Virus record (IMG/VR): IMGVR_UViG_3300021403_000003
Location: 49,952 to 113,951 of that record
DNA from: a virus
Lineage: Duplodnaviria > Heunggongvirae > Uroviricota > Caudoviricetes
Strand: one strand, 5' to 3'
Length of the DNA stretch: 64,000 nucleotides
Each line of letters opens with the position of its first letter. Within the stretch, counting starts at the first letter, position 1. Shown one piece after another: positions 37,352 to 62,014 of the stretch. The notes under the pieces are model-generated. The model saw nothing but the letters and a program-made list of their open reading frames with translations, did no database searches and was not told the DNA's origin. A program made the position numbers and the translations under genes.

Positions 37352-39046
37352 GTGAAGATATTTGGTTTCGATATCAAGAAATTCAGTGATGAAGTCCCTG
37401 AATCTCCAGTTATGCCACAAAATGATGATGGAGCTATCGTCATTGAAGCTCCTGTCAGTGGTATCTATGTTGATCTTGATTCCTCTTATCGTTCAGAATT
37501 AGATCTCATTCACAAATATCGTCAAATGGCACTCCAACCAGAAATGGAGAATGCTATCAATGATATTGTTGATGAAGCTATCGTTCATGATTCCGATTCT
37601 GGTGAAATCATCAAAATCAACATGGATCGCCTTAAGCAACCAGACAAGATTAAATCATTGATTCGTGAAGAATTTAATAATGTTTTGAAATTGTTAGATT
37701 TCAACAATTTTGGAGATGAGATCTTCCGTAAATGGTACATTGATGGTCGTTTGTATTACAATGTTATCATTGACAAAGATAACCCTCGTGATGGTATTCA
37801 AACCCTTGTATACATTGACAGTCGTAAGATCAAGAAAGTTCGTCAGGTCACCAAGGATAAGAATGCACAAGGAGTTGAAGTCATTACAGGTGTAGAAGAA
37901 TTCTACGTCTATAATGATAAACTTCTCATGACTAATCCAAACAGTGGCAACCCGCTGTTTCAGACTTCCGTTGCTGCAGGTATCCGCTTATCAGCAGACA
38001 GTGTTGTGCAGGTCACATCAGGTGTATATGATCCAATCAAAGCAACCATCCTCAGCTACCTTCACAAGGCTATCCGCCCTCTGAATCAGCTTCGTTTTGT
38101 TGAAGATGCAACAGTTATATATCGTGTAAGTCGTGCTCCAGAACGTCGTGTGTTCTATGTAGACACGAGCGGAATGAACAAAGCCAAGGCTGAACAGTAC
38201 ATGAAGAGCCTTATGACCAACTATCGTAACAAGTTGTCATATGATGCTTCTACAGGAGAGATTCAGGATCAACGTAAGTTTTTGGCAATGATTGAAGATT
38301 ATTGGATGCCACGTAATTCAACAGGCAAATCCAGTGAAATCACGACCCTACCTGCAGGTCAGAACCTTGGTCAAATGGAAGATGTGTTGTATTTCGAAAA
38401 GAAGCTATACAAGGCTCTTGGTATTCCAGCATCCCGTATTGAAAATCCAACAGGGTTATTTAATATTGGTCAGCCTGGCACCATAACTCGCGACGAGGTG
38501 AAATACACAAAGTTCATTCATCGTATGCGTTCACGTTTTTCTTCATTGTTTGATCAATTGATGGAACGTCAATTGGCATTGAAAGGTGTTTGCACAGTCG
38601 AGGAATGGAACCAATTCAAACAAGATTGTTTTTATCAATATCAAGAGGATAACAACTTTGCTGAGTTGAAAGAAACTGAGATCTTGATGAATCGTATGAA
38701 CACATTGACAGTTGTTCAACCATTCATGGGAATTTTCTTCAGTAAGAGTTGGGTCTGGAAGAACATCCTACGCATGGATGAAGATGAAATTAATGATATG
38801 AAAAAGGAAATGGAAGAAGAATTTCAAGATGCAGAAACTCAAGGACATCCACCATTGGCTGGATTCCCACCTGTTGTCCCACCTGGTGCGCCTGTTCCAA
38901 TGGATGGTGATGGACAACCAGGCGCACCAGGTCAAGCTCAACCAGCTGTACCAAAATCACCTGGTCAAGAGGTAGAGGATTCAACTCCAGCAGGACAAGC
39001 TCAAAAGAAAATAAATGATCAAACTAAGGCTTTCTTGAAAAAGTGA
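37352..39046 (+). CDS. Portal vertex protein (gp20-like) with Pro-rich C-terminal tail; GTG start
   Basis: 564 aa, position after gp18/gp19. Confidence 0.8.
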   Translation: MKIFGFDIKKFSDEVPESPVMPQNDDGAIVIEAPVSGIYVDLDSSYRSELDLIHKYRQMALQPEMENAINDIVDEAIVHDSDSGEIIKINMDRLKQPDKIKSLIREEFNNVLKLLDFNNFGDEIFRKWYIDGRLYYNVIIDKDNPRDGIQTLVYIDSRKIKKVRQVTKDKNAQGVEVITGVEEFYVYNDKLLMTNPNSGNPLFQTSVAAGIRLSADSVVQVTSGVYDPIKATILSYLHKAIRPLNQLRFVEDATVIYRVSRAPERRVFYVDTSGMNKAKAEQYMKSLMTNYRNKLSYDASTGEIQDQRKFLAMIEDYWMPRNSTGKSSEITTLPAGQNLGQMEDVLYFEKKLYKALGIPASRIENPTGLFNIGQPGTITRDEVKYTKFIHRMRSRFSSLFDQLMERQLALKGVCTVEEWNQFKQDCFYQYQEDNNFAELKETEILMNRMNTLTVVQPFMGIFFSKSWVWKNILRMDEDEINDMKKEMEEEFQDAETQGHPPLAGFPPVVPPGAPVPMDGDGQPGAPGQAQPAVPKSPGQEVEDSTPAGQAQKKINDQTKAFLKK

Positions 39047-39447
39047 TGGGCACGCCAAGAGGACCATATCAAGGAAAGACTGAGTACAGTCTTTCTCACC
39101 AAAGAAAGCTTGGTTTATTGAAACCAAAGGTGATCGATTACAAGAAAAAGATCATGGATAATGTGAAGATCGATGAGCAAACAGGTTGTTGGATCTGGCA
39201 AAGATGTAAAAACAATCTGGGATATGGATTCACAACATATCATGGTAAAGGAAACCAATTAGTTCATCGCGTTGCTTACATGGAATTCATTGGTCCTATA
39301 CCAGACCCATCTGTTTGTCATAATTGTGACAATCCAAGTTGTTGTAATCCAGATCATCTTTGGTCCGGTACTCAAAGGCAAAATACACAAGACATGATCA
39401 GTAAATCTCGTGAAGGTTGGTTCATGAGCAAGATCATCAATTGCTAA
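39046..39447 (+). CDS. HNH endonuclease (HNH_3-type, free-standing homing endonuclease-like)
   Basis: GYGFTTYHGKGNQLVHRVAY ... CHNCDNPSCCNPDHLW; ATG overlaps the portal stop (TGATG). Confidence 0.75.
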   Translation: MGTPRGPYQGKTEYSLSHQRKLGLLKPKVIDYKKKIMDNVKIDEQTGCWIWQRCKNNLGYGFTTYHGKGNQLVHRVAYMEFIGPIPDPSVCHNCDNPSCCNPDHLWSGTQRQNTQDMISKSREGWFMSKIINC

Positions 39448-39474: not shown

Positions 39475-39834
39475 ATGAATCGTTTCGTTGACCTAGCAGC
39501 TGACAAAAATGCAGCAGATTTTCAACAGCAACTTGAACATATTTTGGGAGAGAAGGCTGGATTAGCACTTGATGCTCGTAAAGCTGTGATTGCTCAAAAT
39601 CTGTTTGATGCAATCCCGCCTCTCACTCAAGAGGAAGTTGAACAGATAGATGAATTGAGCAAGAAAACTCTTGGTTCATATGTCAAAAAAGCTTCTCAAA
39701 GTGTTCAAGGTCACACTGTTACAGCTATCACCGGTCATCATAAAGGTGATCATAATCAATTTGGTAAGCATGCAGTACTTGCATCAAAGAGGTTGAGAGG
39801 TATTGGAAAAGCAGCTGATAAGCTTACCAAGTAA
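39475..39834 (+). CDS. Hypothetical protein sharing a module with the downstream His-rich protein
   Basis: ELSKKTLGSYVKKA ... KRLRGIGKAADKLTK recurs inside 39854..41779 as ELSKKTLGSYVNKA ... RRRLGITKAVSKITK. Confidence 0.4.
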   Translation: MNRFVDLAADKNAADFQQQLEHILGEKAGLALDARKAVIAQNLFDAIPPLTQEEVEQIDELSKKTLGSYVKKASQSVQGHTVTAITGHHKGDHNQFGKHAVLASKRLRGIGKAADKLTK

Positions 39835-39853
39835 TTTTTTGAGAAACTATCAA

Positions 39854-41779
39854 ATGTCCAAACTAACAATAATCAAAGAAGCTGTCCTTGATGTCCAAGA
39901 AACCATTGGACATATTAAGAAAGGTGCATTTCATAAGTGGCTTGGTAAGTCTGAAGATGAACCAATCACAGCGGCTGACATTAAGAAAGGAAAAGCTGCT
40001 GGCGGTCATGCTGCAAAAATGGCTGTGTTCGCTCAGAACTTTGGACATGTCCAAGAAGCATATGAACATGGAGTAGGGGATGTGGTATCTGTTCATCAAC
40101 ATAAACATGGTGTTGATATGGGCCATTATGGTAAGTTTAATGTAGAAAAAGTTACAAAAACACATGTTCATGTTTATAACCATAAACAAAAATCAACGAT
40201 GGTGTTCAACAAAAATTCTGGTCGAGGAATTGGGGAACATGATACATTGATGTTGAAAGAGGAAACTCTCACAGAATTGAGCAAGAAGACCCTTGGCTCA
40301 TATGTCAATAAAGCTGCAGACGATTATGCAACCCACAATGCTGACATGGCACAACACAGAGGTGCAATGGGTCCTTCTATGAAGAAATCCGTGCAAAAGT
40401 TTGTCAGACGTCGTTTGGGTATCACCAAGGCTGTATCAAAGATCACCAAGGAAGAAGGAGTCAAGGCTTCAGCTATTGAGAACATGAAGCAGAACTCTGG
40501 TGAAAAGCTCAACATCAAGGAAGAAACAATTATTTCTCCACATGGTCATCACTATGAAGTGAAACCTGCTCATCAAGAACATTATTTGAATAGTCATACT
40601 CCTGGTCACCAGGGTACATTATCAACAGGTCAGAAGGCTGAACAATTCAATGTGTATCATAATGGTGAACACATTGGTCATGTTCATTCTTACAGTGCTT
40701 ATAAAGACACAAAGAAACCAGGCAGTAGAATTGTAACATCCAGAAAAGATGTGCGTCATTGGGGATTGCAATTGAATCATGGTCATCATAGTGAAAAATA
40801 TAACTGGGGTGGTAAGGTAAAAGAAGGTTCTCATTCAGATATGAAGTTTTCTACCAAGAGTAATGCTTTGGATCAATTAATGCGTTCTCATGCACATCAC
40901 TTGGAACAAAAATCTGCTTCCCATACACCTGTAAGTGAATCAATGACTCAATATGCAGGGATAACTGTGCATGGTCTCAAGAGACCTGGTCATCATGAAG
41001 ATGAAGATCATCAACATATTCACAAACTTGTCAGACAAGTTACAAGCGGTGGTGGTTGGTCAGCAGGTGGTGGTCCTAGGTACCTTGTTGGTCATGAAGA
41101 CCACAAAAAAGTCATAGATCATCTCAAAAATCACAACATTCAAGTGAGTGAAGCGATCAAAGGTTGGAAGCACGCACACAGTGATATCATGAAGCATCGT
41201 GCAGATCAGCACAATGAAGCAATGCCTGTGCGTTTGGTCAGGTTGAACAAAGACGGAAAAGAAAGTGGTATGCATGATGCAACAAAGCATCTTTCTTCCA
41301 TTTCTGCCGCTCACGAATGGCACCAAAACATCGTCAAACTGAATCCAGGTAAGCACGTTGCGCATCATGTCTATCATCAGGGCCAAAAGGTTGGTAAACT
41401 GGTGAATGGTGACTTGGTCAAAGAAGAAACAGTCAATGAAGTCTTGAGCAAGAATGCATCATCTTCTGAATTTGTTGATGATTTTGTGCACTCAAAGAAC
41501 AAAATGTTCAAGGGTGACAGCAAGGCTCAGAGGATCAAAAGAGCTTTGGGAGCATATTATGGTCAACATAATGAAGAAACCATTGTTGAAGCTCACAAAT
41601 ATCATAGAATTTGGATTCATTTCAATGGTAGAGCTCATGAAGTGTGGGGTGAGAATCATGAAGGTCAATCAAGGAAAATCAAAGGTAGTTTGAGACCAAC
41701 AGATGCTAAAGTTGAAGCTTCTCTCACAGCAAAGAAACATGGTTTGATTAGACATGAAACTGAATGGAAAAAGCCATAA
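39854..41779 (+). CDS. Very histidine-rich protein 1 (~10% His; HHxxH, HGHH, HHEDEDHQHIH clusters)
   Basis: Start taken at MSKLTII to avoid overlap with the upstream gene; lies between portal and prohead protease. Confidence 0.5.
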   Translation: MSKLTIIKEAVLDVQETIGHIKKGAFHKWLGKSEDEPITAADIKKGKAAGGHAAKMAVFAQNFGHVQEAYEHGVGDVVSVHQHKHGVDMGHYGKFNVEKVTKTHVHVYNHKQKSTMVFNKNSGRGIGEHDTLMLKEETLTELSKKTLGSYVNKAADDYATHNADMAQHRGAMGPSMKKSVQKFVRRRLGITKAVSKITKEEGVKASAIENMKQNSGEKLNIKEETIISPHGHHYEVKPAHQEHYLNSHTPGHQGTLSTGQKAEQFNVYHNGEHIGHVHSYSAYKDTKKPGSRIVTSRKDVRHWGLQLNHGHHSEKYNWGGKVKEGSHSDMKFSTKSNALDQLMRSHAHHLEQKSASHTPVSESMTQYAGITVHGLKRPGHHEDEDHQHIHKLVRQVTSGGGWSAGGGPRYLVGHEDHKKVIDHLKNHNIQVSEAIKGWKHAHSDIMKHRADQHNEAMPVRLVRLNKDGKESGMHDATKHLSSISAAHEWHQNIVKLNPGKHVAHHVYHQGQKVGKLVNGDLVKEETVNEVLSKNASSSEFVDDFVHSKNKMFKGDSKAQRIKRALGAYYGQHNEETIVEAHKYHRIWIHFNGRAHEVWGENHEGQSRKIKGSLRPTDAKVEASLTAKKHGLIRHETEWKKP

Positions 41780-43050
41780 TGTCTTTCAAGAAATTTTTAG
41801 CAGAACAAAATGTCAATGAAGCAAAAGATCCACCAATGTTGCTTCAGTTACGTCGTCAAGGAATTCGAAACTTTCCTAATGGTGAACGTGTAGCATTGTT
41901 CAGCAATCCACAATTGAATATTCAATTGGCTGTACCATATGACTCTGTTACTGGATCATTGAAACCAACCAATGCTCTTCCTATAAAAGAGGAATCATTG
42001 GTGGAGAATGAAGAATCATTTCATGATGTCTTAACTCGTCATGGATACACAAAAAGCGATCGTAAGCATAATGGTTATGATGTGTATGATAAGATTGATC
42101 ATAACAGTAAAGTATCAATGACACATCATGGCACAACGAGGTCTGCAATGGCAGACTCCAGTGGTCATCATGCTGTAATGCACACGACTTCTCAAACCAC
42201 TTTGACAAAACCACATAAAGTGGTAATTTATGGTTCATCTTGGAATTACTTCAAACCAACGGATAAACCACCTGGTTCTCCTGGAAAACAAGGATCAAAG
42301 TTTGGTTACACATCAAAAGAATTGGATAGGCATCTAAAGAAAGTCCACAAACCAATTCAAGAGGAAACAAAAGATGATTGTGATGATAGAACAAAGAAAA
42401 TTACTTGCTTACAATATGCATATCAATCATTGATTGTACCACAACCAACTGAGCTTCAGAAATCTCTTCATAATTGGTTGAAATCAGAACTTGAAGAGTA
42501 TGGTGATTGGTCAGATATGCCAGATGATGTCCTTTGTGATGTTCACGATGATTTTGTAGCATTGGTTAGAGGTTCAAGTCTAGAACATGATCTTCTTGGT
42601 GAATCATTACAAGAAAAGTATTCACGTCCAATTCGTAAAATCAACAACTTTGCTGATTGGCATGAACAAATGGAAAGGAAAGGAGAAGTACAATTTAAGA
42701 TCCATGATGCAGGAAATAAGACTTCTGGATATTTGAATGGAAATCATGTCGGTACATATAACCACAAAGTTAGAAAAGGTGAGATTCATGAAGAGCTCGT
42801 TCAGGAGTCTCCTCTGCACCGCATAAATACAATTTTAAGAACTGGTCAGGAAGATCATGTGACTTTTCACAATGGTGCTAGTGCAAGGGTTCATCCGAAT
42901 ACTGCTCGCACTGTTCATCAATTGTACCACAAAGTTAATAGTCAAAACAGAGCAAAATTGAGTGAATTGATCAATGGTTCTCCAGAGGGTCTGGTGAGGG
43001 TTGCTAGGTTCGCTGATGAACTAACCAAGAAGAACACAGAGGCAAAGTAA
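41779..43050 (+). CDS. Histidine-rich protein 2
   Basis: Start MSFKKF overlaps the upstream stop (TAATG); His clusters HHGTT, SGHHAVMH. Confidence 0.5.
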   Translation: MSFKKFLAEQNVNEAKDPPMLLQLRRQGIRNFPNGERVALFSNPQLNIQLAVPYDSVTGSLKPTNALPIKEESLVENEESFHDVLTRHGYTKSDRKHNGYDVYDKIDHNSKVSMTHHGTTRSAMADSSGHHAVMHTTSQTTLTKPHKVVIYGSSWNYFKPTDKPPGSPGKQGSKFGYTSKELDRHLKKVHKPIQEETKDDCDDRTKKITCLQYAYQSLIVPQPTELQKSLHNWLKSELEEYGDWSDMPDDVLCDVHDDFVALVRGSSLEHDLLGESLQEKYSRPIRKINNFADWHEQMERKGEVQFKIHDAGNKTSGYLNGNHVGTYNHKVRKGEIHEELVQESPLHRINTILRTGQEDHVTFHNGASARVHPNTARTVHQLYHKVNSQNRAKLSELINGSPEGLVRVARFADELTKKNTEAK

Positions 43051-43532
43051 TGTCAACATTCAACGCACCAGTCGCTACTCTCACTTGGGATCGCGATTAC
43101 ACAGCAATATTAAAGATTACAGGTCAATACACTTCTTCTGCAGGTGCATCAAATACCAAGATCTTGTCAGCAAACAATGTGAAATTTGCTAATTCTAATA
43201 AACCATGCTTTTTGGATGTTGTTGGTATTCAATACAATATGGGATTGGCTAATGGATTCGTTTCTCTTGAATTTAACAATCCAGCAGGCAATGTTACTAT
43301 TGCAACATTTGGTAAGCGTGAATCAGGAGATCAAGCAGTATATATCACCAATCCAGGTACAGCAAATGCGAATGCATCCAATACCAATGGGTTTGGTGAC
43401 CTCAATTTGTTTACAACTGCACTCGATGCAAATGATAGTTTCACCATTACTGTTGCATTGAGGAAGAATGATTTCAATGGAGCATTTGCCAATGTTGGTT
43501 TGGCTTTTGATTCTCCTTGGCATGGTCCTTAA
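43050..43532 (+). CDS. Beta-rich hypothetical virion protein (decoration/structural-like)
   Basis: TAATG overlap; N/G/T/A-rich. Confidence 0.35.
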   Translation: MSTFNAPVATLTWDRDYTAILKITGQYTSSAGASNTKILSANNVKFANSNKPCFLDVVGIQYNMGLANGFVSLEFNNPAGNVTIATFGKRESGDQAVYITNPGTANANASNTNGFGDLNLFTTALDANDSFTITVALRKNDFNGAFANVGLAFDSPWHGP

Positions 43533-43816
43533 TGATTGATATGGGAAGCTTTTTAGAGTTTCTCACAGAAACAGGACCAAGAATCAAGAGAGTTAGAATA
43601 AGGATTAGAGGCGGTAAGGTCCAACGTAATGTTCGTGTTTCAAACGTCAAGGGGTTTCGTTTGAACCATGGCAAATTGACTCGTATGAGTGCAACAGAAA
43701 GATTGCACAGAAGGAGAGGAGCCAGAAAGGCCAAATTTAAGATCCGTGCAAAAAGAGCAAGGATAGCGATGAAAAGGGCAAGAAGTATGAGAAAACGTCA
43801 TTCCATGGGCCTTTGA
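43517..43816 (+). CDS. Highly basic protamine/histone-like protein
   Basis: RIRIRGGKVQRNVRV ... RRRGARKAKFKIRAKRARIAMKRARSMRKRH. Confidence 0.4.
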   Translation: MAWSLMIDMGSFLEFLTETGPRIKRVRIRIRGGKVQRNVRVSNVKGFRLNHGKLTRMSATERLHRRRGARKAKFKIRAKRARIAMKRARSMRKRHSMGL

Positions 43817-43870: not shown

Positions 43871-44125
43871 ATGTTTGGATTATCAACTATTGTATCAGCA
43901 GTAACATTCCTTGGTGTCAAGGGATTGATTGGAGCTGTTGTGGGTGCTGTTGTCACCGTTGCTGTACCAGCTGTAGGTAAGTTTGTTACAAAGCAGTGGG
44001 GATGGTTTCAGAAGAAAGAAACAGTTGTAGCAGCTACAGTTGCAACTGAAGTCAAGAATGTTGCTACCAGTGCCGCAGCAAATGCTGTGTCTGCTGTAGT
44101 AACCAGCGTTGAAAAGAAACTGTAA
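43871..44125 (+). CDS. Small Gly/Ala/Val-rich (glycine-zipper) membrane-like protein
   Basis: GGAG SD; hydrophobic GxxxG-type repeats; sits in the gp67/68-like position before the protease. Confidence 0.4.
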   Translation: MFGLSTIVSAVTFLGVKGLIGAVVGAVVTVAVPAVGKFVTKQWGWFQKKETVVAATVATEVKNVATSAAANAVSAVVTSVEKKL

Positions 44126-44142: not shown

Positions 44143-44787
44143 ATGAAGCTCCTTATTGAACAAATTGATGAATACAAATATCTGACTGAAGAATCAGATA
44201 GTAAGAAGCATTTGTATATTGAAGGTGTATATCTTCAATCAGAGCGAAAGAATCGTAATGGCCGTATCTATCCAAAAAGCATCATTGAACGTGAAGTTGC
44301 GCGTTATTTGAGGGAAAAGGTCGAAGGGAAATGTGCTTGGGGTGAATTGGGACATCCAGACACCCCAAGCATTAATCTTGATCGTACTGCGATGCGCATT
44401 GTTAGTCTTAAAAATGAAGGCAATGATTGGGTTGGTAAGGCAATGGTTCAAAACACGCCTCACGGAAACATTGTCCGTTCTCTCATTGAAGATGGTGGAA
44501 GACTTGGTGTTTCCTCTCGTGGTGTTGGTTCTATCAAGATGGTCGAAGGTGTGAACATGGTTCAAGATGATTTCCATCTCGCGACTGCTGCTGATGTTGT
44601 TGCAGATCCATCTGCACCAGATGCTTATGTTCGTGGATTGATGGAAGGTAAAGAATGGGTCTGGAACAATGGCCTTATTCAAGAAGCTAATATTGCTCAA
44701 CTTCATAAAGAAGTAAAGACAACAAATCGTAAGCATCTTGAAGAAATGACATTGAAGTCATTTCAGAAATTCATCAAATTGCTTTAA
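44143..44787 (+). CDS. Prohead core scaffold/protease (gp21-like)
   Basis: 214 aa (T4 gp21 is 212 aa) directly upstream of scaffold and major capsid genes. Confidence 0.65.
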   Translation: MKLLIEQIDEYKYLTEESDSKKHLYIEGVYLQSERKNRNGRIYPKSIIEREVARYLREKVEGKCAWGELGHPDTPSINLDRTAMRIVSLKNEGNDWVGKAMVQNTPHGNIVRSLIEDGGRLGVSSRGVGSIKMVEGVNMVQDDFHLATAADVVADPSAPDAYVRGLMEGKEWVWNNGLIQEANIAQLHKEVKTTNRKHLEEMTLKSFQKFIKLL

Positions 44788-44843: not shown

Positions 44844-46046
44844 ATGACAACCAAAAGAAGAACACTCGCTGAAGCAGCAATCGATGTTTTACAGTCTTCA
44901 GCAAAGCAAGGTCAAGAGCCAATGCACTCTGTTACACCAGCGGCTGGTGATACTTTGCAAAACAAGGTTGATCTTGGTGGAGCAACAACCAGGGAACCAC
45001 AAGGTAATGATGTTGGTAAGGTGACTGCTGCACACCGTCCACAAGCTACTGCTCCAAAGGGACCAGTTGTTGGTGCTGAAGGCATCCATCATGGTCCAGA
45101 AGGTGGTGCAAAGGGAACTGCTGAAGGTGGGGAAGAAGAGGTAGAACCACCAATGGCAACCTCTGGTGGATGTGCTCCAACAAAGGGATCAGAAGCAGCT
45201 GATACATTGTATTCTGAAGATATGGAACCAACTGCTGAAGAAATTGAAGCTGTACGTCAAGAACGTGTTAATGCTATTCGCGAAACCATGAGAACTTTGT
45301 CAGTTGATGAAGACATCAACGCAATGTTTGCTGGTAGTGAACTTTTGCAGTCAGAAAGTTTCCGTTCAAATGCAAAGACCATTTTTGAAACTGCTGTTAT
45401 TGCACGTGCAATTATGGTTGCAGAAAAGCTCGAAGAAGATATCATCCAAGCATCAGAAGAAGCAGTTGAAGAAATCCGTGAGGAAATCGAAGGCCGAGTT
45501 GATGCATACCTTGACCATATGGTTGAGCAGTGGATGGGTAAGAACGAAGTCGCAATTGAATCTGGTCTCCGTACAGAAATCAGCGAAGAATTCATTGATG
45601 GTCTCCGTAATTTGTTTTTGGAACATAATCTTGATATTCCAGAAGAAAAGGTTGATGTTGTTGAATCTCTGACTGCAAAGGTTGAACAGCTCCAATCTCA
45701 AATTAACGAGACCCTAAATACCAATGTTGAACTGACAAAGGCTATCAACGAAGGTAAGAAAACCAATTTGATCGCCTCAGTTTGTGAGGGACTCACCGCT
45801 ACTCAAACTGAGAAGTTCAAGACGCTCGCAGAGGGTGTTGAATTCACCACAGAAGGTGAATATAAGGGGAAGCTGGACGTTATCCGCGAACAGTATTTCT
45901 CAAAACAGGTGAACAACAGGGCTGTGACAAGCCAGGTTGCATTGGCAGAAGGTTCAAGTCCAACACCAGTTGAGACAAAAGAAATCTCCGGTCCAATGGC
46001 AAACCTTGTAGCAGCAATGAGCAGATTGCCAATCAATCAAAAATAA
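44844..46046 (+). CDS. Prohead scaffold protein (gp22-like)
   Basis: Acidic, Ala/Glu-rich helical protein between protease and capsid. Confidence 0.6.
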   Translation: MTTKRRTLAEAAIDVLQSSAKQGQEPMHSVTPAAGDTLQNKVDLGGATTREPQGNDVGKVTAAHRPQATAPKGPVVGAEGIHHGPEGGAKGTAEGGEEEVEPPMATSGGCAPTKGSEAADTLYSEDMEPTAEEIEAVRQERVNAIRETMRTLSVDEDINAMFAGSELLQSESFRSNAKTIFETAVIARAIMVAEKLEEDIIQASEEAVEEIREEIEGRVDAYLDHMVEQWMGKNEVAIESGLRTEISEEFIDGLRNLFLEHNLDIPEEKVDVVESLTAKVEQLQSQINETLNTNVELTKAINEGKKTNLIASVCEGLTATQTEKFKTLAEGVEFTTEGEYKGKLDVIREQYFSKQVNNRAVTSQVALAEGSSPTPVETKEISGPMANLVAAMSRLPINQK

Positions 46047-46097: not shown

Positions 46098-47522
46098 ATG
46101 ATGAGACAAGTAGATACACAAGCACTTCTCCAGAAGTGGGGTCCAGTTCTCGACCACGAGAGCATGCCACGTATTGGGGATTCACGCCGTCGTTTGCATA
46201 CTGCAGTGCTGTTGGAAAATACCACTGAAGCTGTTTCCGAACAGGTTCGCCTTGAAGGTGCAAACTATATCGGTTTTGAGGCTCAAAAGGCTCTCTTGAC
46301 TGAAACCCTTCCAACCAACTTCGCAGGTACTGGTGGTTATAGCGGTTCCGCTTCAGCAACTGGTCCAGTGGCTGGTTTTGACCCAATCTTGATCAGCTTG
46401 ATCCGTCGTAACATGCCAGTTCTTATGGGATATGATGTTTGCGGCGTTCAGCCAATGACTGGTCCAACTGGATTGATTTTCGCAATGCGTTCCGTTTATG
46501 GTTCCGCAACTGTAAACTCAACTGCACAAAACGAAGCTCTCTACCAGGAAGCTAACAACTTTGGTGGTAACACCAGTTTGACTTTTGTGACTCCATTCGC
46601 AAACACCAACCTCAACCCTGGTGGTTCTAACACCTCTTATGGTTCTGGTGGTGGTTTCCCAACCGCAAACCTAGAAGATTTGGGTGGCGGTACAACCATG
46701 AACACCATGGGCTTCAGCATTGAAAAGGTCACTGTTACCGCTAACGGTCGTGGCTTGCAGGCTGGATACACCTTGGAATTGGCACAGGACTTGAAGGCAA
46801 TTCACGGATTGGATGCAGAAACTGAGTTGGCAAACATTTTGTCAACTGAATTGCTTGCAGAAATCAACCGTGAAGTTGTTCGTACCATTTACATCACTGC
46901 AACAGTTGGTGCTCAGACCAGCAACGTAGCAGGTGTGTACAACATGACTCCAGTTTCTGGTGTCTCTGGTGGTATCTTCGGTGGTGACTCCTACGGTCGT
47001 TGGCAGATTGAAATCTACAAGGGTCTCGTCTTCCAGATCGAACGTGAAGCCAACAAGATCATGAAGGATACTCGTCGTGGTAAGGGAAACCTTGTAATTT
47101 GCTCAACTGACGTCGGTTCTGCATTGGCAATGTCTGGTTTGCTTGATTATGAAAGCAAACTCAGCCAAGTGACTGGTGGTGTTACAACCCCAGATGATTA
47201 CGAGAAGGGAACCTTCTTGGGTGTGTTGAATGGTAAGATCAAGGTCTACGTTGATCCATACTCTGTCTCCGGCGCTGATTACGTCGTTGTCGGATATCGT
47301 GGTTCCAACGCTTATGACGCTGGTTTGTTCTACTGCCCATACGTCCCATTGCAGATGGTTCGTGCGATCGATCCAAACACCTACCAGCCAAAGATTGGGT
47401 TCAAGACCCGTTATGGTTTGGTGGCAAACCCATTCGCTCAGGGTTACACTCAGGGCAGTGGTGCATTGACCGCAAACAGCAACTTGTATTACAGAAAGTT
47501 CATCGTTGCTGGTTTGAAGTAA
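46098..47522 (+). CDS. Major capsid protein (gp23-like)
   Basis: 474 aa; position after gp21/gp22; GGAG SD; strong terminator follows. Confidence 0.8.
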   Translation: MMRQVDTQALLQKWGPVLDHESMPRIGDSRRRLHTAVLLENTTEAVSEQVRLEGANYIGFEAQKALLTETLPTNFAGTGGYSGSASATGPVAGFDPILISLIRRNMPVLMGYDVCGVQPMTGPTGLIFAMRSVYGSATVNSTAQNEALYQEANNFGGNTSLTFVTPFANTNLNPGGSNTSYGSGGGFPTANLEDLGGGTTMNTMGFSIEKVTVTANGRGLQAGYTLELAQDLKAIHGLDAETELANILSTELLAEINREVVRTIYITATVGAQTSNVAGVYNMTPVSGVSGGIFGGDSYGRWQIEIYKGLVFQIEREANKIMKDTRRGKGNLVICSTDVGSALAMSGLLDYESKLSQVTGGVTTPDDYEKGTFLGVLNGKIKVYVDPYSVSGADYVVVGYRGSNAYDAGLFYCPYVPLQMVRAIDPNTYQPKIGFKTRYGLVANPFAQGYTQGSGALTANSNLYYRKFIVAGLK

Positions 47523-51668: not shown

Positions 51669-52089
51669 TACAGTGCCAAGTAGTTGGTCACCAGGTGAAT
51701 TAAAGATATTAAAGGAATTGGGAAACATGGATATACCAATTTCCCAATCAATACCTTTTCAACCTCTTAAAGTTTGTCTTTACAGATCAAACGGTCTAAC
51801 ACCTGTAGAAGTTCGTGATATTCTTCATAAGATGTTTGGTCATTACAGACATGAAGAAATCAAGTTTGTTATTGCAGGAATACTGGGTAATTCTGCAGCA
51901 ATAGAATGGATTGAAGAACATCAATATGAATATGAAACCTATGATAATCCATCTAGGTTTGCTTTCCATGAAATAATGAAGGATGGATTGGATATATTTA
52001 TTGAATTCAACAGAAAAGGGACAATGACATCCGTTCTCGCTCAACGGCTTGAGGATGCTGGTATCTATACTTATATTGTTGAACTATGA
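51640..52089 (+). CDS. Hypothetical protein
   Basis: 149-aa ORF. Confidence 0.35.
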   Translation: MKIWDLMVSNTVPSSWSPGELKILKELGNMDIPISQSIPFQPLKVCLYRSNGLTPVEVRDILHKMFGHYRHEEIKFVIAGILGNSAAIEWIEEHQYEYETYDNPSRFAFHEIMKDGLDIFIEFNRKGTMTSVLAQRLEDAGIYTYIVEL

Positions 52090-53156
52090 AAATTGCCATA
52101 TTAGGGGATACACATTTTGGGGTTCGAAATGACAGCATGGCTTTCCATAGTTATGCACGTCGATTTTATCAAGAAATATTTTTTCCATACTTGAAACAAG
52201 AAAATATCAAGGATGTCATTCAAGTTGGAGATCTTTTTGACCGACGTAAGTTCATCAATTATCAAAGTTTATACTTGAGTCGTACATATTTTTTTGATGA
52301 ATTCAAGAAATCAGGGATAAAACTCACAACATTTCCTGGTAACCATGATATCTTCTTCAAAAACACACTGATGGTTAATTCCATAGAATTATTACTCAAT
52401 GAATATATCATACAAGGTTCTGTAGTTGTTTTGAAAAATCCAACCACATCGGATTTTGATGGAATACCACTAGATTTTATTCCTTGGATTTGTAAAGAAA
52501 ACAGTGAACAAGTCAGTCAGTTTATCAAACATACCAAATCACAAATTTGTTTTGGTCATTTTGAGATTCAAGGATTTCAGATGGATAAAGACAATGTTTG
52601 TGATGATGGTATGTCACGTGAAGATTTGAAGATGTATGATATGGTGATGTCAGGACATTTTCATCAAAAGTCAACAGATGGTCACATCTATTACGTCGGT
52701 GCACCGATGGAGCACACTTGGTCTGATTATGATCAGGAACGTGGGTTTCATGTATTTGATACAGAAACCCGGTCTTTGACATTCATCCCCAACCCATTTA
52801 AGATGCATGAAATTGTAATCTACGATGATACCAAGGAAACATTGGAAAGTATCACTGGAAAGGATTATAGTTCATACAGTAACATGTACCTGAAAGTTGT
52901 TGTTGAGGAAAAGAAGAGCCCTGTGTTGTTTGATGCATTCATCGGGGAACTCTACAAAATTAATCCACTGGATGTCAACATCGTGGAAAATTTCATTGAA
53001 GAGGAAGTCGAAGTGGATGTTGATCAGTCAGAAGATACGGTGACCATCATTCACAAATGCATAGATGGAGTGGAGACCGATCTGAACAAGGATAAACTCA
53101 AGCGTTTAATGGGTGACGTGTATAAAGAGTCTGTGTATTCACAGGATATAGCATGA
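52086..53156 (+). CDS. Recombination endonuclease subunit gp47 (Mre11/SbcD-like)
   Basis: ILGDTHFG (motif I), GDLFD, FPGNHD (motif III), GHFH phosphoesterase motifs. Confidence 0.8.
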   Translation: MKIAILGDTHFGVRNDSMAFHSYARRFYQEIFFPYLKQENIKDVIQVGDLFDRRKFINYQSLYLSRTYFFDEFKKSGIKLTTFPGNHDIFFKNTLMVNSIELLLNEYIIQGSVVVLKNPTTSDFDGIPLDFIPWICKENSEQVSQFIKHTKSQICFGHFEIQGFQMDKDNVCDDGMSREDLKMYDMVMSGHFHQKSTDGHIYYVGAPMEHTWSDYDQERGFHVFDTETRSLTFIPNPFKMHEIVIYDDTKETLESITGKDYSSYSNMYLKVVVEEKKSPVLFDAFIGELYKINPLDVNIVENFIEEEVEVDVDQSEDTVTIIHKCIDGVETDLNKDKLKRLMGDVYKESVYSQDIA

Positions 53157-54871
53157 TTTTGTTTGAAGTAATAAGATGGAAAAATCTGTTGTCTACAGGT
53201 AATAGTTGGACAGAAATCTGGCTCAATAAAAGTTCCACAACCTTGATTATTGGTAAGAATGGTCATGGTAAAAGCACAATTATCGATGCTATTTGTTATG
53301 CTCTATTTGGCAGCCCATTCAGGAAAATCAATCTCGAGTTGTTGATCAACAGTATCAACCTAGCAAACACCAGGGTTGAACTTGAGTTCAGTATAGGCAA
53401 TAAAAAGTACAAAGTCATTCGTGGTATGAGACCTCAAACATTTGAGGTTTACGAAAATGGAATTTTACTGAATCAAGATGCTTCACTAAGAGATTATCAG
53501 AAGAACCTAGAGAAAAATATTCTTGGTTTCAATATGAAGTCATTCACTCAGGTCGTAGTGATAGGATCAAATTCCTTCACACCATTTATGAGGCTTGGGC
53601 CACAAGACCGTAGAGCTATCATCGAGAATTTGCTGGACATCGAGGTGTTCAGCTCCATGAACATTATAGTCAAGAAGAAGGTAAAAGACAACAATGACAT
53701 CATCAAAAGTTCCAAGTCAAAAATTGAAGGATTGGTGGACAAAATTGCTCTTCAGGAAAAGTTCATCAATGACAAAAAGAAAGACCATCAAAAGATTATC
53801 GACGAAAGACAAGTTTCTCATGACAGTATAAAGGTTGAAATCTCGGTATTGAAGAAATCTGCACATGATATTCAACTTGATATTAACACTTTGTTGGGAA
53901 AGATAAATGGTGAGACTATCATCAGAGAAAATGCAAGGAAACTCGAATCATTCAGAACCAAAATAGAAGCAAAGATCAATGGATTGGAGACCGAGAACAA
54001 ATTCTTTGAAACTCACAATGACTGTCCAAAGTGTCATCAACCATTAAGTAATAAGAAGGCTGTCTGTGACCATAATGATAATGAACTTGTGACACTCCGT
54101 CAGGGGTTGGGTCAACTCTTCACCAAACAACACCAAGTAGAGACTCAGATCAATGTTCTTAAGGATATTCAAGCTAAGATAAACAAACGTCAACTTGAAT
54201 TGCGAGAAATACAAACTCGCATTTCTGAGAAGCAACATAGTGTCGATGGGATTGCTGCCAAGATTCAGGAGCTAAAAGATGCTGCAAAGACCACAATTAC
54301 TGACGATCTTCTCAAGGCAAAACAGGACCTGGAAACGGAACTAAAGAAGATAATAAATGAACGAAATGAAGCATTGGAAACGAAGACTTATCTCGATGCC
54401 GCTGTGGTTCTACTTCGGGACGAAGGCATTAAAGCCAAAATTGTTAAACAATATCTTCCTGTTATCAACAAACTTGCCAATAAATACTTGTCCGAACTGG
54501 ACTTCTTCGCTGACTTCCATCTTGATGGAGAATTCAATGAGACCATCAAGTCCCGTCATCGAGACAAATTCAGCTATGAGTCATTCAGTGAAGGACAAAA
54601 ACGAAGAATCGATCTCAGTTTGCTTTTCACTTGGAGAGCTGTCGCCAAACTTAAAAACAGTGTTAACACCAACCTCTTAATCCTTGATGAGATTTTGGAC
54701 GGTTCATTGGATGATGATGGTATGGAAGAATTCATGAAGTTGTTGAACACCTTTGGTAATGGTACAAACAATTTCGTCATCAGTCATCGTGGTGATATGT
54801 TGGCTGATAAGTTCGACAATGTACTCAAATTCAAAATGTCTGGTTTATTTTCAGAGGCAGTAATAGCATGA
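53153..54871 (+). CDS. Recombination endonuclease subunit gp46 (Rad50/SbcC-like ATPase)
   Basis: Walker A IGKNGHGKSTIIDAI, central coiled coil, CPKC zinc hook-like motif, C-terminal LILDEILDGSLD. Confidence 0.8.
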   Translation: MILFEVIRWKNLLSTGNSWTEIWLNKSSTTLIIGKNGHGKSTIIDAICYALFGSPFRKINLELLINSINLANTRVELEFSIGNKKYKVIRGMRPQTFEVYENGILLNQDASLRDYQKNLEKNILGFNMKSFTQVVVIGSNSFTPFMRLGPQDRRAIIENLLDIEVFSSMNIIVKKKVKDNNDIIKSSKSKIEGLVDKIALQEKFINDKKKDHQKIIDERQVSHDSIKVEISVLKKSAHDIQLDINTLLGKINGETIIRENARKLESFRTKIEAKINGLETENKFFETHNDCPKCHQPLSNKKAVCDHNDNELVTLRQGLGQLFTKQHQVETQINVLKDIQAKINKRQLELREIQTRISEKQHSVDGIAAKIQELKDAAKTTITDDLLKAKQDLETELKKIINERNEALETKTYLDAAVVLLRDEGIKAKIVKQYLPVINKLANKYLSELDFFADFHLDGEFNETIKSRHRDKFSYESFSEGQKRRIDLSLLFTWRAVAKLKNSVNTNLLILDEILDGSLDDDGMEEFMKLLNTFGNGTNNFVISHRGDMLADKFDNVLKFKMSGLFSEAVIA

Positions 54872-55665
54872 ATGAAGTGTTTCAAGCACCAGAAATTGTT
54901 GGTGGTCTTCCTAACAAAGAACTCAATGTGGCATCTGACAAGTCATTGGTATTCGTACCGAGTCAAAGAAGAATCACAGCAAAGGGACCCGAAGGACCAG
55001 TTGAATTTGAGATTTTCAAGGTAGTGGATGGATATAACCCTATCCTCAAACAGAAGGCTGTAAATTGGGATTTCTCCAATCCACCTGGACCATTATATTA
55101 CATTGCCATGTCTATGATCCAGACAATGCTCCGCAACGGAGGAGTGGGTCTTGCTGCCAATCAGTGTGGATTACCATACAATCTATTTGTAATGGGTACT
55201 GGACCTAATTTCATGGAAGTTATTGTAAATCCAAGAATTATCAAAACTTCAGGAGAAGAAAAATCTCAGGAAGGATGTTTATCATTTCCAGGATTATATC
55301 TCAAGGTTAAACGAGCAACTCACATTGAAGTTGAGTATGAAGATCTCAAAGGTATGACAAAGAAAGTTGCATACGATGGTCTGACTGCCAGAATTTTCTT
55401 GCATGAATTTGATCATTTGCAAGGTGTCAAATACACCGAGCTTGTTAAATCCATTGATCTTGGTAGAGCAAAGGAAAAAGTCAAGAGCAATCTGAGAAAA
55501 ATGAAACATGTTCGTGAGGATTCTGAAAGGAAGCAACGAGCATTAGTTCATGAGGCAGCAGTTGAGAAGGCTAAACCATCACCAACTATCAATCAACAAT
55601 TGATTTTAGACCAAAAAGCACGTCAAGTTGATGGTAACACTATATTGACTTTCAGCTCAACGTAA
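54868..55665 (+). CDS. def: Peptide deformylase
   Basis: GVGLAANQCG (motif 1), EGCLSFPG (motif 2), HEFDHLQG (motif 3). Confidence 0.8.
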   Translation: MNEVFQAPEIVGGLPNKELNVASDKSLVFVPSQRRITAKGPEGPVEFEIFKVVDGYNPILKQKAVNWDFSNPPGPLYYIAMSMIQTMLRNGGVGLAANQCGLPYNLFVMGTGPNFMEVIVNPRIIKTSGEEKSQEGCLSFPGLYLKVKRATHIEVEYEDLKGMTKKVAYDGLTARIFLHEFDHLQGVKYTELVKSIDLGRAKEKVKSNLRKMKHVREDSERKQRALVHEAAVEKAKPSPTINQQLILDQKARQVDGNTILTFSST

Positions 55666-55750: not shown

Positions 55751-58153
55751 TTGACCACCTTACCCCACGCCAACGGTCGCAAAATTGACCTGACGGTTAC
55801 CAAGGCACTCCTCGCCAAGCTCCTCGCTTCAGAGAACCTGACAGTGATTCATGAGCCTATCGAGACTGCGTATTTCGACCTGCGTGATCGTGTACTTCAC
55901 TGCCCCATTTTCAAGGACATGACCAGCAGCCTATACGACCTTCTTATGGGTCATGAGGTTGGTCATGCCTTGTACACTCCCATGGAGGGTTGGCACAAGG
56001 AGATAGTAAAGTGCAATCAGAATCACGAGCATGAGGATTCATGCTATGATGTAAATTTCAAAGGCTTCCTGAATGTTTGTGAGGATGCCAGGATAGAGAA
56101 GAAAATTAAGCGCAAATTCAATGGTTTGCGCTCTAGTTTCGCTCAAGCTTATTCTGAACTGATGGATCGCGACTTTTTTGGAGTCAAGGGTGTAGATGCT
56201 TCCAATCTGAATTTGATCGATCGCATCAACCTCTTTTTCAAAGTTGGTTCTCATTATCCAGTTCAGTTCAATCAAGAAGAGCAAGCTTACGTTCAACAGT
56301 TGGAAAATGCTGAAACTTGGGATGATGTTGTTACGGTTGCTCGTGCGATCTACAAATATGATCAAGAACAGCCGAAGATCAACAACTTGAGCCAGTTGAA
56401 GAACCTTAAAGGTAAAGGTCAACAGAAGTTTGACAAACCTGGTAAGTCTGATCAAGGTTCTGGTAAGCAGAAAGATCAGGACAATCAAGATCAGGAGAAC
56501 GCTTCTGATTCCGACCCCAGTGGTAAAGATGATTCCCAAGATGGTAAAGGTTCTGATGGTGGTCAAGGTGACAAATCAGAAAAGAGCGACAAATCAGCTC
56601 AAGGGGAAGGAAAGACTAGCAATAATGGGGAAAAGAAGGATGAAAAGGACAAAAAAGGCAAGCAGGTTGGTCCATTAGGTGGTATCAACAAGGAAAAGAC
56701 CCCTCCGACTAGCCCACAGTCAGTAACTGACCAGAGCTTTCGTCACAACGAAAATCAATTGGTCAACACTAATAATTTCGATCAGTTGATCAATGCAACC
56801 TTTCCCAAGGCAGATTTGGGGAAGGTCATATATGACGTGAAAACAGTTGTGGAGTTCTACGAGCGTCAGGCCAGCATTGAAACTAAAACAGCTTCTGTGG
56901 AAATTCTCAAATTTTTCACGGTCAAAAACAAAGCTTCTGTGATGCACCTACTGAAAGAATTTGAGATGCGCAAGAACGCTCGTCAATATATGCATGCCAA
57001 GATCACTCGCACCGGAGAGCTGGATTCTGAATTGTTGTCAGAATATCGCTTTCGGAATGACATCTTTTTGCAGAGCACTGAGACATTGAAGGGTAAAAGT
57101 CATGGTATGGTGATGTTTCTGGATATGTCAAGTTCCATGAATGGTAATTTCATGTATCATGCAATAGAACAAATTCTAACGCTTACATCTTTCTGTGACA
57201 AGGCTCACATGCCTTATGATGTATATGGGTTTGCTGATAACTTGGAATACTCTGCAAAGGTCAACATCAAAGGTTATAGTACCAAAGGTTATGGTACAAA
57301 CAATGACTTATTCAGTCACGGCATCCGTGATCTACAATGCAACACTGGTTATTTCCATCTGCGTCATCTGATTTCCAGCCGTGTTTCTGGTCTATTGCGC
57401 AAGCGTGCAGCTCAAATGCTTGCAATGTTGGCTGGTTTTCATACCTCTGATCAGAGGATCCCCAGTAAAGACGGAAAGTCTGAAGATATCCATCCAGTTC
57501 GTCGGTTAATGAGTAAAGTAAAGGATACATCCGCATGCGGACTTGGTACACATGGTACCCCATTGAGTGAGTGTATCATTAGCTCCCGTCAAATCATTGA
57601 GAAATTCAAAACTGACACCAAGGTTGATATCACTAACGTGATCTATTTGTCAGATGGTAATGGTTCTCAGATTGGGATACCACAAGGTCAAAGTGGTAAC
57701 AAGCTCATGATCACGGACCCAGTAACCCGTAAGCACAAATATGTGGATAATATCTCCAACACAAGGTATGACGAAAACGTTAAGGTACAATCTGCTTTGG
57801 TATCTTTTGTTAAGGAACTCACTGGTTGTCGTCACATTTGTTACTACATTTGTGATTCCAGTCATGTCAGATCCATGGCCAAAAAATTGAAAGATAGCAA
57901 TGCACGTAAGGAAGCGGAAGAAACATCAAAGAAATATGGTTATGTAGCTGTACCGATGATGGGGTTTGACCGCTACTTCTACATCAGCACTGAATTCATG
58001 GGCTACAAAGATAAATTCACTGGACAGAAAGTTGAGGGTTCCACTGAAAATCTGGAAAAGGCTTTCAGCCAGAATATGGTATCCAAGAAAGCTCAACGTG
58101 CGGTAATGCAACAGTTTGCTCAAGATATTGCTACCATTGACGGGTTGGAATAA
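55751..58153 (+). CDS. CobT-like vWA-domain protein with N-terminal HExxH motif and central K/D/G/Q-rich disordered linker; TTG start in track
   Basis: MIDAS DMSSSM in the C-terminal vWA domain; GHEVGHALY zincin-like motif; AGGAGACTAGC SD before TTG. Confidence 0.55.
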   Translation: MTTLPHANGRKIDLTVTKALLAKLLASENLTVIHEPIETAYFDLRDRVLHCPIFKDMTSSLYDLLMGHEVGHALYTPMEGWHKEIVKCNQNHEHEDSCYDVNFKGFLNVCEDARIEKKIKRKFNGLRSSFAQAYSELMDRDFFGVKGVDASNLNLIDRINLFFKVGSHYPVQFNQEEQAYVQQLENAETWDDVVTVARAIYKYDQEQPKINNLSQLKNLKGKGQQKFDKPGKSDQGSGKQKDQDNQDQENASDSDPSGKDDSQDGKGSDGGQGDKSEKSDKSAQGEGKTSNNGEKKDEKDKKGKQVGPLGGINKEKTPPTSPQSVTDQSFRHNENQLVNTNNFDQLINATFPKADLGKVIYDVKTVVEFYERQASIETKTASVEILKFFTVKNKASVMHLLKEFEMRKNARQYMHAKITRTGELDSELLSEYRFRNDIFLQSTETLKGKSHGMVMFLDMSSSMNGNFMYHAIEQILTLTSFCDKAHMPYDVYGFADNLEYSAKVNIKGYSTKGYGTNNDLFSHGIRDLQCNTGYFHLRHLISSRVSGLLRKRAAQMLAMLAGFHTSDQRIPSKDGKSEDIHPVRRLMSKVKDTSACGLGTHGTPLSECIISSRQIIEKFKTDTKVDITNVIYLSDGNGSQIGIPQGQSGNKLMITDPVTRKHKYVDNISNTRYDENVKVQSALVSFVKELTGCRHICYYICDSSHVRSMAKKLKDSNARKEAEETSKKYGYVAVPMMGFDRYFYISTEFMGYKDKFTGQKVEGSTENLEKAFSQNMVSKKAQRAVMQQFAQDIATIDGLE

Positions 58154-61575: not shown

Positions 61576-61808
61576 TGTACAAGTGCATTGAAGCTCCTTG
61601 CTGTTATCAAAATCCTGTTCCAGAACTTCAGTTGCTTCCAAATGGAGAATTTGAGTGTCCATATTGCAAGCGAAACTATGATCAGCAAACTCTTAACAGG
61701 ATATACAAAACAACTCCTTGTATAGGGAATGATGAGGAATGTCATCTATTTTGCTGTAATATCTGGTGTGAAGGTGATTGTGAATATTGTGGAGTTGAAA
61801 GATCATGA
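61572..61808 (+). CDS. Cys-rich small protein (Zn-binding)
   Basis: CPYCKRN ... CCNIWCEGDCEYCG; ATGA overlap. Confidence 0.4.
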   Translation: MMYKCIEAPCCYQNPVPELQLLPNGEFECPYCKRNYDQQTLNRIYKTTPCIGNDEECHLFCCNIWCEGDCEYCGVERS

Positions 61809-62014
61809 CATATGAAGAACTCCGTCAACGTTGTGTGAATTTTTCTGAAATGCATCCAAACAATCCATGTAATTTAATTGATATTGCTAGACATGCTAAA
61901 CGTAGAGCAATAGAAAGAGGAAACATGGATAAGTTTGAAGAACTCGTTATTGAATTAGCAAATTTCATTGAAAATAAGAGAAAACCTAAGAGATGCTCAA
62001 CCAAGAATGGGTAA
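61805..62014 (+). CDS. Hypothetical protein
   Basis: ATGA overlap. Confidence 0.35.
   Translation: MTYEELRQRCVNFSEMHPNNPCNLIDIARHAKRRAIERGNMDKFEELVIELANFIENKRKPKRCSTKNG

Follow-up and report, generated by a model that had tools for sequence, protein, structure and literature searches.

A conserved histidine-rich gene cluster of a T4-like phage probably encodes internal head proteins as protease-processed polyproteins

We analyzed a histidine (His)-rich gene cluster between the portal (gp20) and prohead protease (gp21) genes of a T4-like tailed phage, in a 64,000-nucleotide stretch of DNA, hereafter the window, that covers positions 49,952 to 113,951 of the IMG/VR record IMGVR_UViG_3300021403_000003. 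An original prediction, made from the letters of the window, had pointed out two adjacent large His-rich open reading frames (ORFs), and these are present as described: o641 (ATG 39854 to 41779, 641 a.a.) and o423 (41779-43050, 423 a.a.), preceded by a smaller ORF, o119. The genes for the portal, the HNH endonuclease, o119, o641, o423, o160, o94, gp21, gp22 and gp23 lie on the + strand. The ATG start of o641 is backed by the homologue P0133 and by both gene callers, an alternative TTG start at 39803 giving 658 a.a.; o423 would have 428 a.a. if started at the ATG at 41764. The textbook case of phage proteins that enter the head together with the DNA and are later injected is that of the T4 internal proteins (IPs), which may serve as anti-restriction factors in the host. 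We consider it probable that o641 and o423, together with the C-terminal half of o119, are T4-type prohead-core internal-protein cargo, encoded as protease-processed polyproteins. In the best reading of their sequences, they would be functional counterparts of T4 IPI, IPII and IPIII, built from small shuffled modules. The original prediction had offered packaged internal or ejected proteins as one option, and this option is favored by N-termini resembling the T4 capsid-targeting sequence (CTS), by gp21-type sites at the borders of the modules C, E, F and G, by fusions of modules to the gp22 scaffold, and by a basic, Cys-free composition.

In the pathway that we envisage, a leader of about 9-10 residues (M-x-x-F-K-x-F-L-x-E) would dock the precursor on the gp22 scaffold core during the assembly of gp23. 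The gp21 protease would then cut after [L/I/V]-x-E, thereby removing the leader and parting the modules at 'KEE-T-[LIV]-x-E' linkers, and the predicted products would be peptides of ~6-24 kDa with isoelectric points (pI) of 9-10. Such basic, Cys-free, Lys/His-rich products would stay with the packaged DNA, offsetting its phosphate charge, and would probably leave the head along with the DNA at infection. We infer targeting, cleavage, head retention and ejection from sequence patterns.

In T4, gp21 cuts after L/I-x-E, and the gp23 propeptide comprises 65 residues (PMC9026906). The T4 CTS, MKTYQEFIAE, has 10 residues and is removed by a single gp21 cut (PMC8442874; PMC9026906; T4 IPII record). 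Placing an Asp at its cleavage position prevents processing in T4 yet leaves targeting intact (PMC9026906). The strict CTS pattern was found at only 2 of the 485 Met-starts in the window, both of them in this interval: o423 begins with MSFKKFLAE (residues 1-9, 41779..41805) and the downstream o94 carries the leader MGSFLEFLTE. Among the homologues, 21 of 130 carry the strict pattern. Of the 166 complete proteins retrieved, 46 have their first [LI]xE end at residue 9 or 10. Orthologues of o641 start with MSSFKQFLEE, MSFKAFLQE or MGSFKQYLKE, the o423 leader is conserved across the o423 family, and proteins consisting of a single o641 domain (domain D, below) start with MKTFKQYIAE, MKTFSQFITE or MKTYSQILNE. 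In a related T4-like contig, L006, the only two strict matches also lie in the corresponding interval, at a gp68-like gene and at an extra protein of 230 a.a. with 10% His. The leader-end motif is present in o423 (LAE9) and in o641 (IKE9), whose residues 1-9, MSKLTIIKE (39854..39880), form a diverged capsid-targeting-like leader; leader removal is putative in both.

Searching 5.8 billion proteins yielded 139 homologues of o641, each covering only 6-30% of it, and judged from these matches o641 is a mosaic of small modules shuffled among ~140 metagenomic proteins. We mapped module A to residues ~14-68, B to 71-135, C to 142-213, D to 224-404, E to 434-519 and F to 530-579, followed by a unique C-terminus. 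Elsewhere, the same modules occur as stand-alone small proteins or as N-terminal extensions of genuine gp22 scaffolds. Module C, according to its hidden Markov model, is present in 1-7 copies per protein in 96 of 120 homologues. The proposed sharing of a module between o119 and an internal segment of o641 is real, as residues 56-119 of o119 and 137-199 of o641 are 45% identical over 65 a.a. (E about 1e-9). It had been read as a domain duplication. The two window copies of module C, however, resemble copies on other contigs (51-54%) more than they resemble each other (45%), which speaks against a recent local duplication and for module shuffling. Module A was found in 25 proteins, among them the gp22-type scaffolds P0091 and P0106 and a PG_binding protein, P0055. 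The latter (735 a.a., on a 123-kb ENA contig) carries two PG_binding_1 domains with module A close to its C-terminus, which hints that some module-bearing proteins are delivered effectors directed at the cell wall.

At least one of the modules, domain D, is by its AlphaFold model a genuine folded domain, in which a beta-sheet packs on a long helix with a predicted local distance difference test score (pLDDT) >90 over most of o641 residues 223-362. It matched 38 representative proteins among 1.84 billion, many of them stand-alone proteins of 110-240 a.a., and had no PDB or BFVD relative of note. Modeling of o641 was limited to residues 223-430, because the shuffled module order made global MAFFT alignments unusable, whether of the mosaic homologues (A2) or of o641 with module fragments (A3). 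With 11 matches, the o423 family is small, and its N-terminal, middle and C-terminal parts are conserved. Following the leader, the o423 body (41806..43050) comprises a conserved beta mini-domain (residues 10-71), a variable His-rich insert (77-195; 10% His) that is predicted to be disordered and is missing from most homologues, an acidic part (196-338) that is helical plus alpha/beta by alignment and AlphaFold2 model, and a conserved C-terminal domain (339-423).

Scans of Pfam and PHROG assigned o641 to no family, and gave o423 no Pfam family and only a marginal PHROG match (phrog_696, E=0.005). Sequence searches of the PDB with o641 and with the o423 family profile returned nothing at E<=1, and o423 had no PDB relative by sequence or fold. 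In INPHARED, the module C consensus had no match, and the matches of o641 were limited to module E, in Xanthomonas phages. Nothing relevant emerged from the literature searched for the module motifs or for His-rich internal head proteins. Module E is a stand-alone gene of 92 a.a. in the T4-like Xanthomonas phage X1, where it begins with MTFEEFLGE|AIKGWKH. This gene is one of two adjacent small 'hypothetical' genes between gp15 and the terminase (L001 7983-8773, OQ427096), which start with MTFEEFLGE and MTFEDFLYE; both are likely unannotated internal head proteins of a cultured phage, the first being module E.

The putative cleavage motif is tied to the module borders. An [LIV]xE directly precedes module C in 160/160, module E in 21/21 and module F in 17/17 copies (198/198), compared with a background of 2.1%. 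This test was anchored on conserved module motifs; an earlier window-based test showed no enrichment for modules A and E, and the [LIV]xE of module A precedes the anchor by 2-8 residues. N-terminal leaders and internal 'KEE-T-x-[LIV]-x-E' linkers are followed by the same junctions (E|LSKK, E|AIKGWK and E|VL.K). The sites of o641 sit before modules C, E, F and G and after module C (IKE9, LKE136/LTE141, IKE223, VSE433, VKE524/VNE529 and IVE579), and cleavage at them would release the following fragments. Residues 10-136 (39881..40261; 10% His, pI 9.1) would hold module A (KGAFHKWLGK...) and the His-rich module B. Residues 142-223 (40277..40522), preceded by LKE136/LTE141 and ending with IKE223, correspond to module C, and residues 224-433 (40523..41152) to domain D, with a conserved core at 250-355 and a His-rich tail. 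Module E (AIKGWKHAHSDI...), preceded by VSE433, would be released as residues 434-524 (41153..41425), and module F (VLSKNASSSEFVDDFVHS...ALGAYYG), bounded by VKE524/VNE529 and IVE579, as residues 530-579 (41441..41590). The remaining residues 580-641 (41591..41779 with the stop codon; 11% His, pI 10.1) form the His-rich C-terminal segment G, for which the homologue mapping of o641 found no homologue. [LI]xE sites also exceed expectation in o423 (9 vs 3.5) and in the gp22 of the window (12 vs 6.8). In a pairwise alignment, gp23 of the window (46098..47522) retains LTE69 at the T4 gp23 maturation site, LTE65, which argues that the protease specificity is conserved between T4 and this phage.

Several relatives place the modules directly in the prohead. 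In P0016, P0018, P0091 and P0106, modules A, C or E stand N-terminal to a T4_CASP domain (E 1e-53 to 1e-67), P0016 being encoded between gp21 and gp23 and P0018 directly after gp21. From their T4_CASP domain and, for P0016 and P0018, the gp21/gp23 neighborhood, these are the scaffold proteins of their phages, in which the modules thus enter the prohead as part of the scaffold. In the window itself, the first 60 residues of o119 (39475..39654, ending with IDE60) form a gp67-like prohead-core N-terminus: a profile of this N-terminus and its syntenic orthologues aligned with T4 gp67 from 1-46 to 1-46 (hhalign probability 87.5%, E=3.6e-6), and the orthologue x259 matched phrog_1064 (T4 gp67) at E=0.0067. 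The support comes from profile methods only, as pairwise BLASTP of o119 against T4 gp67 was negative. The likeness is limited to residues 1-46, and where gp67 has its acidic tail, o119 has the basic module C (residues 61-119, 39655..39834; LSKKTLGSYVKKA...KLTK; pI 10.6), directly preceded by the IDE. On the other side of the His-rich pair, o94 (43532..43816) is a gp68-like, Arg/Lys-rich candidate prohead-core protein. It weakly matches the 'head scaffolding' family phrog_3503 (E=0.002-0.004), as does T4 gp68 (E=0.0017), and its end, ...KRHSMGL, resembles that of T4 gp68, ...RRKALGLS, through a common R-x-x-(L/M)-G-L; pairwise BLASTP of o99 (o94 from the 43517 start) against gp68 was not significant. 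The T4 small prohead-core genes, which according to the original prediction normally hold this position, thus appear not to have been replaced by the His-rich pair, since the gp67-like N-terminus and the candidate gp68-like gene still flank it. Neither o641 nor o423 contains a T4_CASP, gp67 or gp68 domain.

Several observations weigh against the assignment as internal-protein cargo. Some homologues of module A lie outside structural regions (P0017), and the only INPHARED match of o423, a weak one to its C-terminal domain in the Methylophilales phage Melnitz, falls among non-structural small genes and has no clear CTS. The leader of o641 matches the CTS only partially and less well than those of its orthologues. 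The [LIV]xE belongs to conserved module sequence and could have a structural role, for example as a helix cap, and several proposed sites have Val at P3 (VSE433 and VNE529), which is undocumented for T4 gp21. The phage has no cultured relative, the best isolate identity of its gp23 being 56%, to cyanomyoviruses. Finally, Pfam and PHROG scans found no sequence homology to mature T4 IPI, IPII or IPIII, a weak criterion, since IPs are described in the literature as diverse except for their CTS.

The location of o641 and o423, flanked by the gp67-like and gp68-like genes and adjacent to gp21 and gp22, would also suit disposable core accessories, which like T4 gp67, gp68 and gp22 would enter the prohead core, help to set the size or shape of the head, be degraded by gp21 and be expelled before packaging, with none retained or ejected. 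The several internal [LIV]xE sites recall the multiply cut T4 gp22, gp67 and gp68, the modules are fused to gp22 in other phages, and o423 combines its excess of [LI]xE sites with an acidic middle part. Nevertheless, we regard this alternative, the main rival, as rather unlikely. Being folded or basic (pI 9-10), the predicted fragments would tend to stay on DNA, and the peptides that T4 expels are mostly small. The leader is similar to the IP-type CTS, and T4 proteins marked in this way are cleaved once and retained. Effector-like domains in some relatives, such as PG_binding_1 in P0055, suit delivered cargo.

We next consider the composition of the putative cargo. His makes up 10.3% of o641, in agreement with the roughly 10% originally stated, 6.1% of o423 and 5.0% of o119, compared with 2.46% in all long ORFs of the window together and 0.3-2.8% in the neighboring structural genes, so that o641 is a clear outlier of the window. 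It also has 11.4% Lys, no Cys and a pI of 9.5; its predicted fragments have pI 9.1-10.1, whereas o423 is mixed (pI 7.8) with its acidic middle. The enrichment is not confined to this genome, as 11 homologues have 8-10% His. Three proteins of the L006 interval are rich in His and lack Cys, namely the gp67-like protein (9.4%), the extra CTS protein (10.0%) and P0039 (10.2%), while the portal, gp21, gp22 and gp23 of L006 have only 0.4-1.5% His. The His enrichment thus characterizes both the clade and the class of cargo.

The arrangement of the His residues is less distinctive than their number. The strings HGHHSEK and HHEDEDHQHIH, cited as clusters by the original prediction, are present in o641, but 10% His scattered at random would lie just as densely: o641 has 26 close His pairs, against 22.9 +/- 3.2 in shuffled sequences (p=0.22), and 5 HH pairs against 6.6. 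The shuffle test thus ruled out His clusters as a specific feature of o641, and the spacing of His pairs did not differ from that in shuffles in o641 or in 6 of 7 relatives. Within domain D, His is conserved at 3 of 15 positions (H269, H312 and H346), and the remaining His positions of o641 mostly face K, R, S, T or E in relatives. Because the His residues are not site-specific, with few conserved positions, random spacing and no metallochaperone domain found, the pattern suggests a polycationic cargo whose composition has shifted, part of its Lys/Arg giving way to His, and not built metal sites, and His as a titratable substitute for Lys/Arg fits the data better than specific metal sites. For the fragment of residues 224-519, which has 14% His, the calculated charge rises from +12 at pH 7 to +42 at pH 5.5 owing to His. 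A strong, clade-wide, Cys-free His enrichment of several cargo genes could bear on the charge neutralization of capsid DNA. It is conceivable, although we give the idea little weight, that the His-shifted cargo proteins act as polycations switched by pH or metal, which would be protonated and hold on to DNA within the capsid, and be neutral and released in the host cytoplasm, or would deliver Zn/Ni/Fe to the infected cell. If so, tailed phages would have a new way of condensing the genome and delivering cargo.

A primary role in metal binding, as chaperones or stores of Ni, Co or Zn or as carriers bringing metal into the host, had also been proposed, and we consider it improbable. Proteins as His-rich as o641, its 11 homologues with 8-10% His and the products of the three separate L006 interval genes will bind divalent cations to some extent, so that non-specific metal binding is conceivable, and the window also encodes the metal-dependent enzymes Tet_JBP, peptide deformylase and Metallophos. 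Against a dedicated function, His runs, clustering beyond chance and Cys are all lacking; searches of Pfam, of the PDB and by fold pointed to no metallochaperone; only the three positions named above are conserved in domain D; and the His-rich insert of o423 is missing from most homologues. The supposed link to cobalt through a downstream CobS/CobT-like pair found no support either, because the 'CobS-like' gene is an AAA_5 ATPase only (415 a.a., 58808-60055) and its neighbor (744 a.a., 55919-58153) has no Pfam family, and nothing ties them to the locus.

We then compared the locus with three related T4-like contigs, L003 (174,927 bp), L006 (166,743 bp) and L007 (90,672 bp). In all of them the order is sheath, tube, portal, a gp67-like protein of 170-259 a.a., a His-rich protein of 568-768 a.a., a protein of 389-403 a.a., a protein of 162-166 a.a., small basic protein(s), gp21, gp22 and gp23. 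The window has an additional gene between the portal (37352..39046; 0.9% His; Portal_T4 assigned on syntenic orthologues) and o119, namely an HNH homing endonuclease (39043..39447; Pfam HNH_3 E=2e-11, PHROG endonuclease E=3e-29), which is absent from this position in L003, L006 and L007. The His-rich genes occupy the same position in three relatives that lack it, and therefore the His-rich cluster is a conserved trait of the clade and the HNH gene a separate insertion that is not part of the system; the view of the region as an HNH-associated insertion hotspot was not borne out. Likewise very improbable, and essentially excluded by the synteny, is an origin of the His-rich genes as selfish or accessory cargo brought in by the HNH gene, or as genes of non-virion proteins placed here by chance: the HNH gene abuts the cluster and homing endonucleases are frequent near the module in relatives (GIY-YIG, NUMOD3), but the order and content of the cluster are conserved without it and its genes are tightly packed inside the late structural operon, with overlapping stop and start codons.

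Homing-endonuclease-type genes lie at differing sites of the sheath-to-gp23 module in each relative, including a GIY-YIG gene after gp23 in L003 (18473-19000) and faint NUMOD3 matches near the tube gene in L006 and L007. These differing sites suggest that the structural operon has been invaded repeatedly and independently. A 150-a.a. ORF after gp21 in L003 (15307-15759) has no Pfam match.

The interval between g20 and g21 is expanded here, to ~5.1 kb; in the nearest cultured cyanomyovirus, ACG-2014d, it holds a single gp67-like ORF of 107 a.a., and in T4 gp67 and gp68. Searches of INPHARED found no close genome, and Megablast gave only a 190-bp stretch of gp23. An identical o641 protein (P0001) is encoded on a 267,524-bp JGI contig, and the longest contig with an identical o423 protein (P0122) has 176,865 bp, compared with 166-175 kb in relatives; the 267,524-bp contig may be a concatemeric assembly and the genome thus not of jumbo size.

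The remaining genes of the region are as follows. Between o423 and o94 lies o160 (43050..43532), a conserved, His-poor protein of 160 a.a. in the cassette; it has orthologues of 162-166 a.a. at the same position in L003, L006 and L007, no Pfam or PHROG match and no CTS-like leader. Just upstream of gp21, o84 (43871..44125) encodes a strongly hydrophobic, Ala/Val/Gly-rich protein of 84 a.a. with no counterpart visible in the three relatives. The prohead protease gp21 (44143..44787) was identified by Peptidase_S77 (E=1e-40) and phrog_207 (E=1e-72), and the scaffold gp22 (44844..46046; N-terminus MTTKRRTLAE) by T4_CASP, assigned on an identical contig. Elsewhere in the window, three adjacent genes at 60277-63809 form an apparent DNA hypermodification cassette, comprising a Tet_JBP 2OG-Fe(II) dioxygenase (60277-61575, E=1.5e-23), an N6_N4 DNA methylase (61993-62736) and an ADDT amino-acid:DNA transferase (62733-63809, E=6e-11). 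A peptide deformylase gene (54868-55665, E=6e-37) adjoins gp46/gp47-like recombination nuclease genes (52086-54871). In the 64 kb of the window there is no copy of the T4 late-promoter consensus TATAAATA, compared with about 2 expected by chance, and the late promoters of this lineage must therefore differ from it.

Outside the T-even phages, internal proteins are almost invisible to annotation because only the 10-residue leader is conserved. Our results suggest that the grammar of a leader plus [LIV]xE is far more widespread, extending to uncultured aquatic T4-like phages, a Xanthomonas phage and stand-alone small proteins whose leaders are nearly identical, and that phages can encode cargo within shuffled polyproteins or as additions to their scaffold protein. 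The combination offers a simple rule by which injected phage effectors can be sought in metagenomic sequences, with testable predictions of cleavage.

Among known systems, His-rich metallochaperones (HypB, UreE, Hpn and SlyD tails) are alike in high His content only: theirs consists of His runs or His/Cys clusters, whereas here the His residues are dispersed, Cys is absent and no homology was detected. Another parallel is that with the phiKZ/SPN3US-type giant phages, whose inner-body/ejection proteins are processed by the prohead protease. Large sets of head-internal proteins are cut there at short Glu-ending motifs and several fragments are retained and ejected (PMC5694885, PMC7411985), much as proposed for o641 and o423. 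These phages nonetheless belong to another lineage, with no sequence relationship found, and their prohead protease motif differs, being A/S/G-x-E.

With T4 gp67, gp68 and gp22, the cluster shares its genomic position, the gp67-like N-terminus of o119, the gp68-like o94 and many [LI]xE sites, and the same modules are literally part of gp22 in other phages; o641 and o423 are, however, far larger, and basic rather than acidic. The likeness extends further to the T4 IPs, which are highly basic, with Lys residues that contact DNA (PMC8442874), and whose mature sequences are diverse, the CTS apart (PMC9026906). In both systems a leader of ~10 residues follows the same pattern and ends with L/I-x-E (MKTYQEFIAE in T4, MSFKKFLAE here, MSSFKQFLEE and MKTFKQYIAE in relatives), the proteins are basic and tied to the gp21/gp22 core, and the leader alone is conserved among diverse mature parts. 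The T4 IPs, by contrast, are separate small genes (8-20 kDa) elsewhere in the genome, each product being cut once, whereas the proteins here are multi-module polyproteins of 423-768 a.a. in the g20-g21 interval, with internal linker sites, and His-rich besides Lys-rich. Compared with the T4 CTS/IP system, the leader, the protease grammar and the core association are thus the same, and the encoding as polyproteins or scaffold fusions and the His-rich chemistry differ.

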